A stretch of DNA of 64,000 bases from a virus. Below the pieces are notes generated by a model that was not told where the DNA came from, ran no database searches, and saw only the letters and a program-made list of their open reading frames with translations. Where the stretch lies: the IMG/VR virus record IMGVR_UViG_3300043444_000523, positions 40,737 to 104,736 of that record; one strand, written 5' to 3'. Below, in pieces: positions 2,108 through 41,139 of the stretch; the first letter of the stretch is position 1; the number at the start of each line of letters is the position of its first letter. The position numbers were made by a program, and so were the translations under genes.

Positions 2108-5100
2108 CTATTGCCGTTGCGGCTTGAATCCATTAGCCGGACTTGACTGCTTCCCTGATTGAGCAGCAACATTCGGCTTATCGCCAAGAGAATTCCGAAT
2201 CGCCTTCCTTGCGCCAGCAGCAACAAGAGCGACCAAAATTGACTTTGTTAGAGCCCTTCTCTGTGTTCCAGGATCGCCAAGCAACAAGTTTCCGAACTTC
2301 TTCAACGGCGAGTCTTTGCCAAAGTTGATTAACTTCTTTTGGTCTGGATGAGCCCGCTGAATAAACGAAGGCGGGATGTAATCCCCTTCGCCAAACTTCT
2401 GCCCCTCAAGCGTGATGCCGCCCTTCGGAGCACGCGGCCCCTTGGCCATGCTCTTCGGCATGTCCTGCGGAATCCGCATCAGCAACTTCCGGTTCAACTC
2501 GTGCAATTCTTCAGGCGTTGCATTCGAGATGAAGTCGCCGACATGGCCAGAGAGAGTCTCATGCAAGTGCTGCTGCAACTCTTTCTGAACTTCAGGAGGA
2601 GCATCGGCAATGAAGTCACTCACAGTTTGCTTGAGTTCAGGATCGAGTCGCTTTGGGACCGATGGCGATACTCCAAAAGCCTTACCAAGTCGCTTTTTGA
2701 CACTCTCAGACATCTTCTGCCTAATTGCGCCGCCCATCGTCTTTGGCTGAGTTGGGATCGGCTTGCGACCGTCGCCCTCTTGGGCCTTCTTGAGTTTGGC
2801 CTTCTCTTCAGGAGTCGCCGACTCCAGAACTTCGGACGGAATGAATTGACCGCCGATGTACTTCTTGCCTTGAAGAGTCACACCACCAACCGGAGCGCGT
2901 TCGGCTGCGTAGGGAACCGGCCGTGTCTTTGATTGATCGGTAACTGCACCAAGTCCTGCACCGCCAGCAGCACCCATCGTCCCGCCAATGGTAGCACCAG
3001 CAAGTGAGCCAACTGGACCAAGGATGCTCCCACCCACAGCGCCAGCAGCAGCACCGCCAGCACCTCCCATTAACCCACCTTTGGCAAGTCCTTTGAAGAA
3101 GTAAGGGACTGGAGACTTCTTCCCCTTGTTCTCAACCGGCGTGTCCTTCACACCAGCCGCCTTCAGTCCCTTCTCTGCGACCCAACCGACTGGGCCAGCC
3201 ACTTTGCCGCCCATCTTTGAGCCGAGTTTCTCACCGAGGAATCCGCCTGCAATTCCGCCGACTGTAGAAGTGATCGGGGCCGCTGGTCCTCCGAGCATAC
3301 CCAAGGTAGCACCAGCTGCGCCACCGCCGATTGCGCCAACAACTCCGCCAGCGTTGTTGTTCATCTTGGGCTTCGGGACTTCGTACCGGACTGGATTCTT
3401 CTTCCCGGCAGATACAACCGCGCCTTTCATCTTTGGCATGGATTTCACGTTCCTTAGCCACGGAGGATCAGCGTTCCCTGAATCACCTTGGGCAACAGCT
3501 GCAGCAGCCGGAGTCGCAGCCGGTGCAACATCCTTCGGCTTCCTCACATACTTCCTCTTCGGTTTCGGACTGTCCTGAACAGCAGTTGCAGCCGGAGCCT
3601 GTGCCGGATCGGCAACAACCGCTTTCCCAGGTGTTGCATTGGCGTTGATTGAACCAAGCAAATCGTCTCCGTCCGTGCCAGCTGCTTTCGGAGGAGGAGC
3701 ACTTCTTCGTCCAGCGCCTGGGGGCGTTGTCTTTGGAGTCGGCTTATTTGCCGTAGGCGGATTGCCTTTGCCAGCAACTGGAACATCGCCGTAAAGGCCA
3801 GCCAAAATGTCTTTGCCAAGCATCTCTGTCGCAGGTTGTCCAGTATTCCCGCCGTTCATCGGACCAGGGAAACCTCCCTGTGTTCCTGTCGGCGGAGTAG
3901 AAGGCTGACCGGCCAATCGCGCTGGGAATCCAGGCTGAACTCCTCCAGTGTCAGCTGGCAATGCTTCCATTCCAAGCCTTGACGGGAACCCTGGCTGTGC
4001 GCCATTGCTCGCTGCTGGAGTCGGCTTAACTGCCCCAGGAATTACCTTGTTCCTTTCAATCCTCTTTGCCCTATCTTGTGCCCGCTGAGCCACAGATTGC
4101 CTTGCTTGAGAACCCATACCCAACATTGCGCCGCCGCCAATTCCGGTTACACTACCGGCAATAGCGCCTTGTTTGATTGCCGTTCCAAGCCTTGATCGAT
4201 ACTCTTCGTCGGTCTCTCCAGGCTGTTGCCCATCAGCCATAATTCCGCTGCTGATACCAGTCAGCGCAGCACCGCTCAGTCCGCCAAGTGCCGATTGCTT
4301 CAGCACTTCGCTGGTTCGTGGGCTTTCACGCCGGAATTTCTGAACTGCACGAGACATCCTCTGGCCAAGTGATCTGTTGACCGGCGCATACTCTGTCGCC
4401 TGATTCTGAGTCGGTCCCATAGCTTTCCCGATCTGGTCTGCGGCCACCATAGAGCCGACTTGAGCGGCCCCTTGTTGGACAGCCGGATTACGAACTGCCT
4501 TGCCAGCACCTTTCGCAATCGCACCGCCTGCCTTGGCCAACGCTGCGCCGAAGCTGTACTGCTCGGCATCTTTGGTTTTCCCAAGTGCAACGTCGAACTT
4601 GCCATACTGCACCGGCTTCGCTTGCCCCATGCACATCGACTTCTGATCCGGCGTCATGGACCGAGCAAACGACGGCGGGATATGATGGCCAGCCTTAAAG
4701 TGATGGCCACCAATCTCGATGCCGCCTTTCGGGGCACGAAGAGAAGAGGCGTCGTATTTACCAACGGTCTTTCCTGCACCTGGGAAGAGTTCAGCGTTGA
4801 CTTTTTTCATAAACTCGGCCCCCTCTTTCCCTGTGACAATTCTCGTTCCAACAGGCTTCGAAGGGCGAATCATAAACCGTTCTCTTGGGGTCAGACCAGC
4901 AGTAGTGCCAATTGCCATCCCCCTACTAATCAAGGCAGGCACTTGCTCTTTGCTGAAATTGAGTTTCTTGGTCAGACTCTTGATGAGTTCTTGATCGCCC
5001 TTCTCTGGGTCGATTTTCGTCAATTGATGCGTGATTCTGTCGGCCCGTTCCTTGTTTTTCGACGCCCTATCAAACGCAATCTTGGCCAATGTGATCCTTC

Positions 5101-15313: not shown

Positions 15314-15375
15314 CAACGAAAGGAGATTTCGTAAACAACCCCACGGCTGAAGCCGGGGGGCTTTGCCGCTGGGTT

Positions 15376-16449
15376 TTAGCCCGCGACTTTTGGGGCCGGT
15401 TTACTGACGGCCCAAGCCCTCAAATTGAGGGCAGCGTTTCGGTCGGCATTTGTGGAGTGCCCGCAATGTTTGCAGACAAACTCAGACTGGCTCTTTCGGT
15501 TGGCACGCTCGCAGTGGCCGCAGACATGGCACGTCTGGGAACTGTATCGCGGGTCAACCAAGACTACGGACACGCCTGCCCGTCGGGCCTTGTACTCCAC
15601 AAACTGCCGAAGCTGAAAGAAACTCCAGTTGCCAAGTCGTCGCCGGAAACGCCTAGAAGCCGTTTGCTCACAACGGTCACGCAAACCGGAGAGGTTCTCC
15701 AGAGCGATACCGATGCCGAGTGTCTTGGCTTTGCCGACAAGACTCTTGCTGATGGCGTGGTTTACCCATGCTTGATAGCGGGACTGCCGCCCCGCCATCC
15801 GCTTCAACCGTCGCTTGGCAGACTTGGTTCCTTTCCGTTGGTACTGCTTACGGGCTGTCATCCGGCGCTTGCGGTTTCGTTCGACACCCGCACCGGAGAA
15901 CGATTCCCCGGTGGAGTCGGTAGCAATCTGGACAATGCCAAAGTCACAACCCAAGTATTCGGTAACCGGCTGTGGGTCGGAAACGGTCGCCTTGACTTGA
16001 ACATGCAGAAAGTAACCGCCATCGCGTTTGACAAGTGCAGCGCTGGTCGGAACCTTCCCCGCAAGCGCGGTTCGCTGAAAGTCGCCAAGTTGGGTCGTCA
16101 GTCGATGCCGCCCATGCAACAGGGTCAGGCTGAAAGTCCAGTCGGATTCTCGGAAGGAAAAGATTCGAGCATCGTAGTTCACGCTCGTAGGAGCAAATCG
16201 GGAGAGGTCTTTTACGGCGGCAACGCGACCGATGGCACGAACGGCCAGATTCGCCGACAGCCCGAACGCAGTCCGCGTTTCGCGGTAGGCCAATTTGTGC
16301 AGAGCGAGATGTCCTTTAGTCTCTGTCTCTGCCGCACGACGAACCAAGTGATTGCACGCCGCAGCGAAAGCCACAAGTGTAACGTCGATTTCAACCGCCT
16401 GTTCAGCGGTCGGAACCAGCTTGCAACAGATGGTACGGATGGCTTCCAT
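15376..16449 (-). CDS. tnpB: RNA-guided endonuclease TnpB
   Basis: RuvC LGCDFG / IALENL / ADRNAALNL; CHVC...CKHC zinc finger. Confidence 0.95.
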   Translation of the reverse strand: MEAIRTICCKLVPTAEQAVEIDVTLVAFAAACNHLVRRAAETETKGHLALHKLAYRETRTAFGLSANLAVRAIGRVAAVKDLSRFAPTSVNYDARIFSFRESDWTFSLTLLHGRHRLTTQLGDFQRTALAGKVPTSAALVKRDGGYFLHVQVKATVSDPQPVTEYLGCDFGIVQIATDSTGESFSGAGVERNRKRRMTARKQYQRKGTKSAKRRLKRMAGRQSRYQAWVNHAISKSLVGKAKTLGIGIALENLSGLRDRCEQTASRRFRRRLGNWSFFQLRQFVEYKARRAGVSVVLVDPRYSSQTCHVCGHCERANRKSQSEFVCKHCGHSTNADRNAALNLRAWAVSKPAPKVAG

Positions 16450-16842
16450 TCAGACACCCTTCTGGTTCTCGATGTACTGCTTGATAACGGCCAGAGGCGC
16501 GCCGCCAACAGTCGCGACAAAGTAGGAGTTCGTCCAGAGCGATGGCAACCGGCTACGCAACGCTGGGTACTCCGTGCGCAGGAACCGGGACGAACGGCCC
16601 TTGACCAACTTTATCAGCCGGTGGATTCCGAACTGTGGATCGACTTCAACGAGCAGATGTACGTGATCGGGCATCACTTCCATCTCGATCAGTTCCGAAC
16701 GGGTTTCAAGGATCACTTCCCGAATCAGATTCTTGAGCCGTTCATCAACGCCGTCGATCAAGACCTTGCGACGATACTTGGGGCAGAAAACAACGTGGTA
16801 CTTGCAGCAGTAGGACACGTTGTTATTGCTCTTGAGCCTCAT
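16450..16842 (-). CDS. tnpA: IS200/IS605 Y1 HUH transposase
   Basis: YHVVFCPKYRR, DHVHLL (HUH), LWTNSYF, YIENQ. Confidence 0.97.
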   Translation of the reverse strand: MRLKSNNNVSYCCKYHVVFCPKYRRKVLIDGVDERLKNLIREVILETRSELIEMEVMPDHVHLLVEVDPQFGIHRLIKLVKGRSSRFLRTEYPALRSRLPSLWTNSYFVATVGGAPLAVIKQYIENQKGV

Positions 16843-16948
16843 TCCTGTATTATACACGTCCGAGATGTCGAATGCCACCTCAGTAGCGTGGATTCGCCGT
16901 CTCCATTCCTCCCCATGCCTGAAGGCAGGGGTTTCTTGGAGACATTTC

Positions 16949-17044
16949 ATGAACAGCAAAGCCAAATTTTGGTTTGTGTTCGCTATTGTGTCTTCATGCT
17001 TTTGTGCGTTCTTATTCTCAATCTACTCATGGAAAGTCTGGTAG
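16949..17044 (+). CDS. Small hydrophobic protein between two mobile elements
   Basis: MNSKAKFWFVFAIVSSCFCAFLFSIYSWKVW; removing the IS gives AAAGGAGATTTC-ATG. Confidence 0.5.
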   Translation: MNSKAKFWFVFAIVSSCFCAFLFSIYSWKVW

Positions 17045-17059
17045 TGGCTCAACATGGTG

Positions 17060-17087
17060 TTGACAACCTGGACGACCCTGATAGAGT
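17060..17087 (+). promoter_or_regulatory. Sigma70-like promoter for tnpB, probably leaderless
   Basis: TTGACA-16 nt-TAGAGT preceded by TGA; GTG start 7 nt downstream; the -35 box overlaps the left TIR. Confidence 0.55.
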
Positions 17088-17094
17088 TATCCTT

Positions 17095-18270
17095 GTGCTG
17101 AAAACGATTACCTATCGTCTGTACCCGTCGCGGGAGCAGGAATCTTTCCTGTTCTACTTCCTCTACATTGGCCGCAAGATTTACAACGACGCACTTGCCG
17201 AGCGCGTCCGGTTCTACAAAGACACTGGCAAAAGCCTGACTAAATTCACGCAACAGATGGACCTGACGATACGCAGGTCAATTAGCCCGGTGCTTGCCTC
17301 TGTCCCTGTCTGGATTGAGCGAGACTCCCTGTCTAGGATAGACAAGGCATTCGCCAATTTCTTCCGCAGAGTAAATGAAGGGAGTGCCAAGCCTGGGTTC
17401 CCGCGATTCAAGTCAGCCAATCGCTGGAACAGTTTCTCAATGCCTATCCAAGGCAGTGGCAAGAAACTGGTGCAAGGAAATAGAATCCGCGTGGCCGGGA
17501 TTGAAGGAACAATGCCAAGCCGTGGCGGGCAACAAATACTTGGAAAGATCATTGTCCAGAGAATTGTTCATCGAGCAGGCAAGTGGTTCTGCAAGTTCGT
17601 AGTTGATGACAAACTCGACCCACCGCCTATTCATCCTGTAAAGTCGGCTATCGGCGTCGATGTTGGTCTGAAATCGTTTGCAACGCTTAGCAACGGTTCA
17701 ACGATTGAGAATCCACGATTCTATCGGGGACTGGAACTCAAGCGTGCCCATCGCAACGTGTCTCGTAAAATCAAAGGCAGTCGGAACCGATGGAGAGCCG
17801 TTCGTCGTCTTCAATCGGTTTATGAGAAAGTCAGAAACTTACGCCACAATTTTACGCATCACGAGAGCAAGAGGATTGTCAATGACCACCAACTGATTGT
17901 TGTCGAAAAACTGAACATAGCTGGCATGGCCAGAAGCCGATTTGCCAAAAGTATCTTGGACGCTGCATGGGGTCGGTTCATATTTCAATTGCGTTACAAA
18001 GCTGAAAACGCTGGTTGCGCATTCGTTGAAGTTGACCCCCGTGGCACAAGCCAAGATTGCAGCAAGTGCGGCCAGACCGTGCCAAAGAAGTTGTCGGATC
18101 GTGTCCATAAATGCTCTTGCGGTCTCGTGCTAGACCGCGACCATAATGCGGCGTTGAACATCCTTCAGCGTGCCGTTCGATCAGCACCCGGCCCCGGTAG
18201 GTGGATCGGTAAAGCGTGTGGAGAGGCTACGAAGACTCGGCGAAACACGAAGGCTTCAACACCATGTTGA
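17095..18270 (+). CDS. tnpB: RNA-guided endonuclease TnpB (second, unrelated copy)
   Basis: LKTITYRLYPSREQ N-terminus, GFPRFK, RuvC IGVDVG / VVEKL / DRDHNAALNIL all intact, CSKC...CSC finger. Confidence 0.93.
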   Translation: MLKTITYRLYPSREQESFLFYFLYIGRKIYNDALAERVRFYKDTGKSLTKFTQQMDLTIRRSISPVLASVPVWIERDSLSRIDKAFANFFRRVNEGSAKPGFPRFKSANRWNSFSMPIQGSGKKLVQGNRIRVAGIEGTMPSRGGQQILGKIIVQRIVHRAGKWFCKFVVDDKLDPPPIHPVKSAIGVDVGLKSFATLSNGSTIENPRFYRGLELKRAHRNVSRKIKGSRNRWRAVRRLQSVYEKVRNLRHNFTHHESKRIVNDHQLIVVEKLNIAGMARSRFAKSILDAAWGRFIFQLRYKAENAGCAFVEVDPRGTSQDCSKCGQTVPKKLSDRVHKCSCGLVLDRDHNAALNILQRAVRSAPGPGRWIGKACGEATKTRRNTKASTPC

Positions 18271-18360
18271 GCCACTACCGAAGTGTTCTACAATAGGCGT
18301 CATTCGCATGTACGAGCGATAGGCAAGCCGAAATGCTTGAGAAGAAGAAAGGAAACAACA

Positions 18361-18975
18361 ATGGTTCGTAAAATTGGAAGAATCCAGTTCCCGGTTTTTT
18401 CTGGAATCCGCTGTTTGATGCTCCCTTATATTCAAGGAGATTCAAAAAGCGTCCCGCATGAGTATGGTCATGGATACGAATCAATACTCGACGACCTTTA
18501 TGTCAGGAAAGGGGACATCGGGTTTTTGACAATTGACGAATCAATTGCTCATTCTGGATCGCCGCATCGCGGAGCGAGAGCCAAGCATGGACGGGCATTG
18601 CATACAGAGGCAGGTCGTCATCCAGACATGGTGTACGCCTGGGGTGGCGGGAATTGGGGCGGCTCCAATAGAACAACGCTGAGCAGAGATGTTAAGGTTC
18701 TCATTTCAAACAGCATCGACAAGACTTGCGCTGTTTGGGATGCAGAGCATGAAAACACTACCATTGACGGGGACATTGGGTATTTGAGTGATCGTTATCC
18801 TTACGATTCTGCGATGTTCATGATGGCCGGTGAAGTGTACGAGATCGGAATCCTGACTCCACACGAAAGCCTTCCAGTCAACCAAGACACAAGGCGGCAG
18901 TTTATTCGCATTGTGTCGTCTGGGGTGAATGGAAGAGAGCCGTATTTTACCAAGAACAGGCTTCTTGATTACTAG
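18361..18975 (+). CDS. Putative 2OG-Fe(II) oxygenase-like protein
   Basis: LHTE...TPHESLP...RQFIRI spacing of HxE...H...R; AAGGA RBS. Confidence 0.5.
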   Translation: MVRKIGRIQFPVFSGIRCLMLPYIQGDSKSVPHEYGHGYESILDDLYVRKGDIGFLTIDESIAHSGSPHRGARAKHGRALHTEAGRHPDMVYAWGGGNWGGSNRTTLSRDVKVLISNSIDKTCAVWDAEHENTTIDGDIGYLSDRYPYDSAMFMMAGEVYEIGILTPHESLPVNQDTRRQFIRIVSSGVNGREPYFTKNRLLDY

Positions 18976-40651: not shown

Positions 40652-41139
40652 AAATGGCTACCCCTGGGCTACCCCACCTACTCCCCTGGGCTGAAAACAC
40701 CCCCGTTTTCGACCCCCTGCCACCCCACCCCATGCACCACCCACCCGGCAAAGTGAACAAATGAACACTGTTTGCGGCCCGGATTGTGTACATTAGTCCA
40801 CTGAAGCGGAATTCCGCGCAAGATCGTACATAGTGTGCAATAACACTACAGTGCATTAAGACAATGATCAAATAGACACAGATTAGAGCATATTCCCTAA
40901 GTCTTTACTATCATTAGACTTGTGACGATTCTTGCGGCATTCTGCGAGATTATTTAGGCGTTTGGCATAGTCATTGCTTTAGTTTCTCTTGCCGCGGCGC
41001 ATCTCGCAAGAGACAAGCGCCGCGGCAGTGCTGCGGGATTCCCGAGCGCTTTCGCGCGCTTGTCATTGTTGGCAAGCGCCATACGCTGCGCGGCGCGCAG
41101 CAGCGTATGCGTTTTTCTGCGCGCCATGGGAGTTATGTA

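Follow-up and report, generated by a model that had tools for sequence, protein, structure and literature searches.

A phage tnpB cassette that is probably a non-autonomous transposon with IS1-family ends

The subject of this report is a tnpB cassette of 1,240 bp (~1.24 kb) at positions 17040-18279 of a 64,000-nucleotide stretch of viral DNA (hereafter, the window; positions 40,737 to 104,736 of IMG/VR record IMGVR_UViG_3300043444_000523). The complete record is 104,736 bp long and is estimated to be 87% complete; the window is thus a part of it. We consider it likely that the cassette is a non-autonomous transposon with IS1-family ends, that tnpB and its omegaRNA are its sole cargo, and that it is moved by an IS1 transposase acting in trans. 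TnpB is the ancestor of Cas12 and is employed as a compact genome editor. An earlier note on this DNA had suggested that the gene was carried by a trans-mobilized element of the DDE type, and the inverted repeats and target duplications of its relatives (8/8 in L102, 7/9 in L086) support that suggestion at the level of sequence. The features of the cassette, in window coordinates, are:

17040..17063, plus strand: left terminal inverted repeat, GGTAGTGGCTCAACATGGTGTTGA, with a tip of the IS1-family type
17060..17087, plus strand: putative tnpB promoter, TTGACA (at 17060), 16 nt, then TAGAGT with a TG extension; 10/12 by consensus match
17095..18270, plus strand: tnpB (protein P0001, 391 amino acids), GTG start, TGA stop, RuvC triad and zinc finger intact
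18080..18279, plus strand: presumed omegaRNA scaffold, of putative extent, overlapping the 3' end of tnpB
18252..18273, plus strand: terminal imperfect hairpin, GGCT(T)CAACA-CCA-TGTTGAGCC, then the 6-nt tail ACTACC (18274-18279)
18256..18279, minus strand: right terminal inverted repeat, holding the tnpB stop (18268-18270) and the 3' arm of the terminal hairpin
18280..18297, plus strand: predicted guide-encoding flank, GAAGTGTTCTACAATAGG, placed from the element boundary and the canonical layout

The Cassette and Its Protein

The two 24-nt inverted arms (17040-17063 and 18256-18279), described as exact in the earlier note, are 100% complementary; their inverted-repeat score of 24 compares with a best value of 10 in shuffled flanks, and just two copies of the arm are present across the entire record with three mismatches allowed. 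tnpB is the sole gene between them. Both repeats overlap parts of the gene, as had been noticed from the start: the putative -35 box, recognized by consensus match, is the inner end of the left repeat, and the stop is a TGA within the right repeat, 9 nt from the right tip. A TTGAC motif occupies the position equivalent to that of the cassette in the relatives L085, L086, and L102. It had also been proposed that precise removal of the cassette would leave AAA GTC TGA and thereby give an upstream gene its natural stop; the arithmetic is correct, but no weight is given to it, as the upstream ORF (open reading frame) is an unsupported one of 31 codons that ends two codons later anyway. An outward-facing promoter-like site is present at 18267-18294 (9/12 matches), combining a -35-like TTGAGC in the right repeat with TACAAT in the flank; it faces a downstream ORF at 18361-18975, and the cassette may drive this neighbor.

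P0001 contains the RuvC-like domain OrfB_IS605, the zinc-ribbon domain Cas12f1-like_TNB, and HTH_OrfB_IS605 (profile E-values: PF01385, 1.9e-22; PF07282, 5.4e-24; PF12323, 1.2e-8). The three RuvC acidic residues that were originally counted in this single tnpB are D189, E271, and D349, which are invariant in an alignment of 25 homologues, as are the cysteines C322, C325, C340, and C342 of its CxxC...CxC zinc finger. The closest homologues are 55-67% identical to P0001 and are known from metagenome assemblies only. Locus scans of genome, metagenome, and viral collections yielded at least ~240 TnpB relatives, with 30-46% identity among the matches listed; the highest value among these locus-scan matches, 54%, belongs to the truncated relative L095. 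At E <= 1e-85, P0001 had no match in 401 Chloroflexota genomes.

The Ends Match Those of IS1 Elements

The tips of IS1-family elements follow the pattern GGnnnTG (ISfinder). Partner elements were sought by searching 401 Chloroflexota genomes with PF03400, the IS1 transposase domain; this phylum was sampled because both the tnpA gene neighboring the cassette and distant TnpB relatives point there. Twelve genomes matched, at 18 loci, and the 8-mer GGTAGTGG that begins the cassette is present in 11 of the 18. Its density at IS1 loci is 0.30 per kb, about tenfold higher than the 0.03-0.04 per kb of control loci, and wherever a contig holds both ends, the 8-mer flanks the transposase in inverted orientation. 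Five complete Chloroflexota IS1 elements were delimited:

L302: 1435-2254 (820 bp)
L292: 1456-2278
L303: 1071-1910
L296 and L295

L292 and L302 have the classic IS1 layout, encoding a 92 amino acid Zn_ribbon_InsA protein and a DDE_Tnp_IS1 frame that overlaps with it (E = 7.6e-10 for Zn_ribbon_InsA and 7.7e-19 for DDE_Tnp_IS1 in these elements). The GGTAnTG tips that had been likened to IS1 are therefore the same tips that bound InsA/DDE_Tnp_IS1 elements in Chloroflexota.

Chloroflexota IS1 elements are ~820 bp long and begin GGTAGTGGCTCA..., and the ends of E. coli IS1A are GGTAATGACTCCAAC and GGTGATGCTGCCAAC. Aligned tip to tip, the cassettes and the IS1 elements have GGTAGTGG[C/G/T]TCA in common. 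The cassette tip, GGTAGTGGCTCAAC, agrees with one end of L302 at 14/14 positions, and its first 12 nt are identical in L288, L290, L292, L293, and L305, five further elements with InsA/InsB. The same holds for related cassettes: over 13 nt, no difference separates the right end of L086 (GGTAGTGGTCAAG) from one end of L296; the first 12 nt of L088 and L099 agree with L300, and so do those of L102 apart from one mismatch at each end. The cassette is an IS1 shell and not IS1 proper, because it has neither insA nor insB, tnpB is its sole gene, and PF03400 is absent from the phage record.

Relatives with Homologous Ends

A systematic inverted-repeat search was made around the tnpB gene of each relative, and two recurring repeat kinds emerged. 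The first is that of the cassette: TnpB relatives at 39-46% identity bear ends homologous to it, GGTAGTGG(N)TCA, in L086, L102, and L173, and partly in L085 and L088, where the repeat is a decayed version. Repeats in homologues had been set beforehand as a test of the reading, and it is in these loci that they were found. The ends of L086 (ACGGTAATGGTCAAGTTTGAC and GTCAAACTTGACCACTACCGT) agree at 20/21 positions and those of L102 (GATAGTGGGTCAGTTTGAG and GTCAAAATGACCCAGTACC) at ~15/19. In L085 and L086, as in the cassette, the tnpB stop is the TGA of TTGA in the right repeat. The inverted repeats are thus a family trait. A transposase gene is absent inside the cassette of every relative examined.

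Duplications of 8-9 bp are what a DDE transposase leaves behind when it makes staggered cuts. A perfect 8-bp target duplication, GAAAGGTT, stands on either side of L102 (8/8; the background frequency of an 8/8 duplication among control offsets is 7e-5), and the flanks of L086, GGAGATAAC and GTGGATAAC, retain a 7/9 target duplication. Transposition by Y1 or serine enzymes leaves no target duplications (PMC13565253).

The Right End and the Predicted Guide

The statement in the earlier note that subterminal hairpins of the IS605 type are lacking is not confirmed for the right end. An imperfect hairpin can form there at a distance of 6 nt from the tip, with a 9-bp stem, one bulged T, and a 6-nt tail (-10.3 kcal/mol, z = -4.1), and the 3' arm of this hairpin, together with the tail, is the IS1-type repeat itself. 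In L085, L086, L095, and L102, too, a distance of exactly 6 nt separates a hairpin from the tip, and in L173 the distance is 8 nt; the stems of these relatives differ in sequence (GGUCA/UGACC, GUCA/UGAC, GCCAC/GUGGC, and ACAG/CUGU). When the two ends of the cassette are compared in the IS605 manner for like hairpins, the left end has only a 6-bp inverted copy, with a complementary loop.

In TnpB systems the omegaRNA arises from the 3' end of the gene and the guide from the flank. Canonical relatives end GAAGCC-hairpin-GGAGTAGTCAC, then flank, and their guide starts after the post-hairpin tail; the cassette ends GAAG-GCT(T)CAACA-CCA-TGTTGAGC-CACTACC, then flank, the GAAG-hairpin-tail layout being common to both. 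The element boundary, directly after ...TACC, is fixed by the duplications of L102 and L086 and by the IS1 tips. The guide would therefore be expected to start directly after the tip, at 18280, as was originally proposed, and this position fits the canonical layout. The presumed omegaRNA scaffold had no match in Rfam, and RNAalifold gave no consensus on ungapped right ends, because loop lengths differ. As a separate observation, a canonical TnpB right end recurs in locus L217 as an inverted copy of 49 nt (47/49), at 1937-1985 and ~3591-3639; the inverted copy is ~500 nt upstream of its tnpB and may be a second, inverted omegaRNA end.

Sister Cassettes with IS1595 Ends

The second repeat kind, GGGAAyTATATACTTrACTCCC, bounds TnpB cassettes of 1.16-1.21 kb at L090, L094, L176, L181, and L057. 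Duplications accompany these repeats in L181 (8/8), L057 (8/8), and L094 (7/8). The ends are linked to IS1595 because in L090 matching repeats 1.5 kb away from the cassette enclose a transposase remnant that comprises Zn_ribbon_IS1595 and the start of DDE_Tnp_IS1595. L090 positions 170-1512 hold this internally deleted IS1595 transposase and an ORF of 107 amino acids, and positions 2961-4136 hold tnpB alone. Full Chloroflexota IS1595 elements (L287, L258, L284, and L270), whose repeats were sought among GG...CC termini, have tips GGGAACTATATAC or GGTAACTATCCC and perfect 8-bp duplications, the length that IS1595 members usually produce (PMC8101967). All four are ~2 kb, roughly 1 kb beyond what the transposase needs, and probably carry a passenger.

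The proposed TnpB phylogeny was run with 114 sequences, and the tree splits at 92% support into sides of 54 and 60 rows. All 22 tnpB genes with an adjoining Y1 tnpA are on the 54-row side. The other holds P0001 together with its close homologues and all cassettes that have IS1 or IS1595 ends, and there a Y1 gene stands beside none of the locus-derived rows; the count of Y1 neighbors covers locus-derived rows only. L102, with its IS1-like ends, is sister (99%) to IS1595-ended cassettes, and L102 and L088 are interleaved with L094, L181, L090, L176, L109, and L188 with high support. Because IS1- and IS1595-ended cassettes are interleaved, the tnpB-omegaRNA cargo must have changed shells, apparently passing from one DDE shell to another on more than one occasion.

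Of the 14 curated cassettes, 12 have a G directly 5' of the left 8-bp duplication position, and in 7/14 the mirrored base on the right is C. The left flanks in question are:

Position 17031 of the window (the present cassette)
L086, L035, L090, L094, L109, L137, L176, L181, L187, L188, and L057

This left-flank G may reflect a preference of the transposase, the last base of the target-adjacent motif (TAM), or both. A broader reading, which we put forward tentatively and rate at somewhat below an even chance, is that a portable TnpB-omegaRNA cargo moved between unrelated DDE shells, leaving Y1 behind and rebuilding its hairpin on each new repeat, and that the left-flank G is the last TAM base, which would couple cut-and-paste transposition to the RNA-guided cutting of empty sites.

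The Neighboring IS605-type Element

The absence of a transposase, asserted in the earlier note, applies to the inside of the cassette and not to its surroundings, where a Y1 tnpA and a second tnpB occupy 15376-16965 on the minus strand, in an element 80 nt to the left:

15332-16960, minus strand: complete IS605-type element, 80 nt from the cassette
~16842-16450, minus strand: Y1 tnpA (P0002), PF01797, E = 3e-42
16449-15376, minus strand: second tnpB (P0003), 357 amino acids, directly after tnpA

The left-end hairpin of this element is CCCCTGCC-TTCA-GGCATGGGG and its right-end hairpin CCCCCCGGC-TTCA-GCCGTGGGG, then TTGTTTAC; they are unlike anything in the cassette. The P0002 TnpA is 65-69% identical to the TnpAs of a Ktedonobacterales metagenome-assembled genome and of several phage contigs. 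A 937-codon open frame at 15457-18270 (plus strand) is an artefact and no gene: opposite the IS605-type genes, the antisense strand is by chance open in the reading frame of tnpB. The window also contains a real, dispersed 23-bp palindrome, AATAGGCGCGAGTCGCGCCTATT (at 206, 7166, 8325, 12028, 18987, 22416, and other positions); a link between it and the cassette was rejected, its sequence being unrelated to the cassette repeats.

How the Cassette May Move, and Alternative Explanations

On the reading that we favor, an IS1 transposase of the DDE, InsAB' type, encoded elsewhere and presumably by the host, would bind the GGTAGTGGCTCA... tips and move the cassette by cut- or copy-and-paste, normally leaving a target duplication of 8-9 bp. 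The left repeat would double as the -35 box of the tnpB promoter, and the right repeat as the tnpB stop, the 6-nt tail, and the 3' arm of the hairpin that closes the omegaRNA. Transcripts that read through the element end would gain flanking DNA, GAAGTGTTCTAC..., as guide, and TnpB with its guide RNA could then cut cassette-free sites, favoring retention or homing. TnpB cutting with such an outcome has been shown for IS605-type elements. Mobilization in trans, the omegaRNA limits, the guide, the TAM, and homing are what we infer from the layout of the cassette and its relatives.

Several observations count against this account. Target duplication is absent at the cassette, as was correctly stated at first reading (its flanks, GGAAAGTCT and GAAGTGTTC, agree at 4/9 positions), and the cassette is single-copy in the 104,736-bp record. 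Because the copy is single and lacks a duplication, it may be immobile now. The exact 24-mer gave 0 matches in the viral and metagenome collections. No IS1 transposase gene (PF03400) is present in the 105-kb phage record, and no genome was found in which an IS1 partner occurs together with an IS1-ended TnpB cassette, the IS1-bearing genomes having been checked via their best TnpB matches only. Moreover, the IS1 elements were sampled from one phylum, and none of the five complete ones examined (0/5) has a target duplication. ISfinder records duplications of 0-10 bp in some IS1 groups. The search for autonomous partners and empty sites recommended in the earlier note was thus only partly rewarded: IS1 elements with the same tips exist, but the phage has no partner, and no empty allele was found when synteny was followed through homologues of the downstream gene in six phage contigs, none of which is syntenic. 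The 14-mer tip has at least 116 single matches in viral contigs, none adjoining a tnpB or IS1 gene; these matches are due to chance.

A stranded fossil, which arrived in the phage once, is now immobile, and is kept because TnpB is neutral or useful (e.g., against competing genomes), would account for the single copy, the missing target duplication, a phage record without a partner transposase, and the failure to find a second copy in the public collections searched. This proposal is compatible with an IS1-shell origin and denies current mobility only. However, repeats that match at 24/24 positions and a fully intact gene suggest that the element was active recently or that both ends are still under selection, and a non-autonomous element of course needs no transposase in the phage; we judge it unlikely. 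A very unlikely alternative is that TnpB is self-directed, the scaffold ending at ~18255 and the right repeat serving as guide, either for autoregulation of its own promoter in the left repeat or for targeting of IS1 ends. The right repeat does perfectly complement the promoter-bearing left repeat, conservation of the protein fades at about residue 387 (i.e., at 18255), and in some IS1595-ended relatives (L105) the scaffold has a canonical end, GTAGTCAC, 13 nt inside the cassette. By homology, however, the hairpin and tail in the right repeat belong to the scaffold, the repeats of relatives mark transposon ends with target duplications, and GGTTG, which would stand 5' of the would-be protospacer, is not known to be a TAM; with intact catalytic residues, a TAM-bearing self-target would be cut rather than regulated. 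A self-directed guide thus suits the layout less well than a guide from the flank.

It is most unlikely that a Y1 TnpA, perhaps the one encoded 80 nt away, moves the cassette as an ordinary element of the IS1341 type (IS200/IS605), and that the cassette repeat represents no more than similar palindromic hairpins. Such an element would explain why a 6-bp hairpin is present in each repeat, 9 nt from its tip, why the right end has the canonical GAAG-hairpin-tail form (with a bulged T), why there is no target duplication, and why a Y1 tnpA adjoins. The 9-nt tips and the loops (TGG versus CCA) are, however, reverse complements, so that one strand lacks a pair of like hairpins with like flanks, and the hairpins of the neighboring element (CCCCTGCC-TTCA-GGCATGGGG) are unrelated to those of the cassette. 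Furthermore, the 8-9-bp duplications of the relatives are not a product of Y1 transposition, no Y1 gene stands beside the locus-derived TnpBs on the tree side of P0001, and the tips are identical to those of IS1. Another proposal, that the cassette entered a palindrome already present, would place the boundaries at 17064/18255 or at both TTGA motifs; it was rejected because the right tip, ...CCACTACC, is conserved in relatives across unrelated contexts, because the duplications of L102 and L086 set the boundary at the tip, and because IS1 elements share that tip.

Comparison with Known Systems

Fanzor, the eukaryotic TnpB, occurs in Mariner, hAT, and Merlin DDE transposons with terminal inverted repeats. 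The likeness lies in an RNA-guided nuclease as cargo, inverted ends, and target duplications (here in relatives), whereas the present cassette is phage-borne and prokaryotic, has a compact TnpB of 391 amino acids, and is housed in an IS1 shell. IS607 elements have a serine recombinase TnpA and asymmetric ends; by contrast, the ends of the cassette are symmetrical and it contains no serine recombinase gene. PMC6188088 and PMC13565253 describe IS607 as having neither inverted repeats nor duplications. With the IS1341 group, the cassette shares tnpB as sole gene, the GAAG, imperfect hairpin, and short tail, and an expected right-flank guide; it differs in having true terminal inverted repeats, in the duplications of its relatives, and in belonging to a clade without Y1 TnpA linkage. 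As had been anticipated, the ends match neither the IS1341 nor the IS607 pattern.

Compared with IS1 itself (E. coli IS1A; L292, L302, and L303), the GGTAGTGGCTCA.. tips, inverted repeats of ~24 nt, and, in relatives, duplications of 8-9 bp are alike, but the cassette lacks insA and insB, carries tnpB and the omegaRNA as cargo, measures 1,240 bp against ~770-840 bp, and has no duplication. The IS1595-ended TnpB cassettes resemble it in size (1.16-1.21 versus 1.24 kb), in being tnpB-only with inverted ends, in 8-bp duplications (here in relatives), in the left G, and in their side of the tree, and differ in having ends of GGGAAyTATATAC.. (IS1595/ISNwi1-like) as opposed to GGTAGTGG....

The novelty implied in the earlier note has to be reduced, as DDE-associated and solo TnpBs with inverted ends were published in 2023: Altae-Tran et al. 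(PNAS; PMC10691335) described DDE-associated branches DDE-1 to DDE-6, all with inverted terminal repeats, and solo TnpBs between the same ends, presumably moved in trans. A 2026 review names ISL2, IS630, and IS1031 as the DDE partner families (PMC13565253). Our full-text literature search found no paper pairing TnpB with the IS1 family, ISMhu11, or IS1595. Like the published elements, the cassette is a solo one with symmetrical inverted ends that match transposase-bearing elements, implying mobilization in trans, and its tnpB has its 3' end no more than 250 bp from the element end (in this case, the stop is 9 nt from it). Unlike them, its probable partner is IS1 (InsA/InsB, 8-9-bp duplications), which is absent from the partner lists of the cited sources, its IS1 repeat forms the 3' arm of the omegaRNA hairpin, and the relatives examined have no co-encoded transposase. 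What is new here, then, is IS1 as a probable TnpB partner family and a repeat fused into the omegaRNA hairpin; DDE-associated TnpB itself was already known.

The role of TnpB in restoring a transposon after scarless excision has been worked out in Y1 and serine-recombinase elements. A DDE-dependent TnpB poses the question of what benefit an RNA-guided nuclease brings to a transposon whose movement results in both a double-strand break and a target duplication, and with IS1 among the best-studied DDE enzymes and active in E. coli, that question is testable with ordinary tools. The fused repeat-hairpin illustrates how an omegaRNA end can be remodeled around foreign sequence, which is useful for guide-RNA engineering. 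If the portable-cargo reading is true, these cassettes would be to prokaryotes what Fanzor-carrying DNA transposons are to eukaryotes, with a phage spreading them in the present case; the phage location is one route by which the cassette could travel between hosts.

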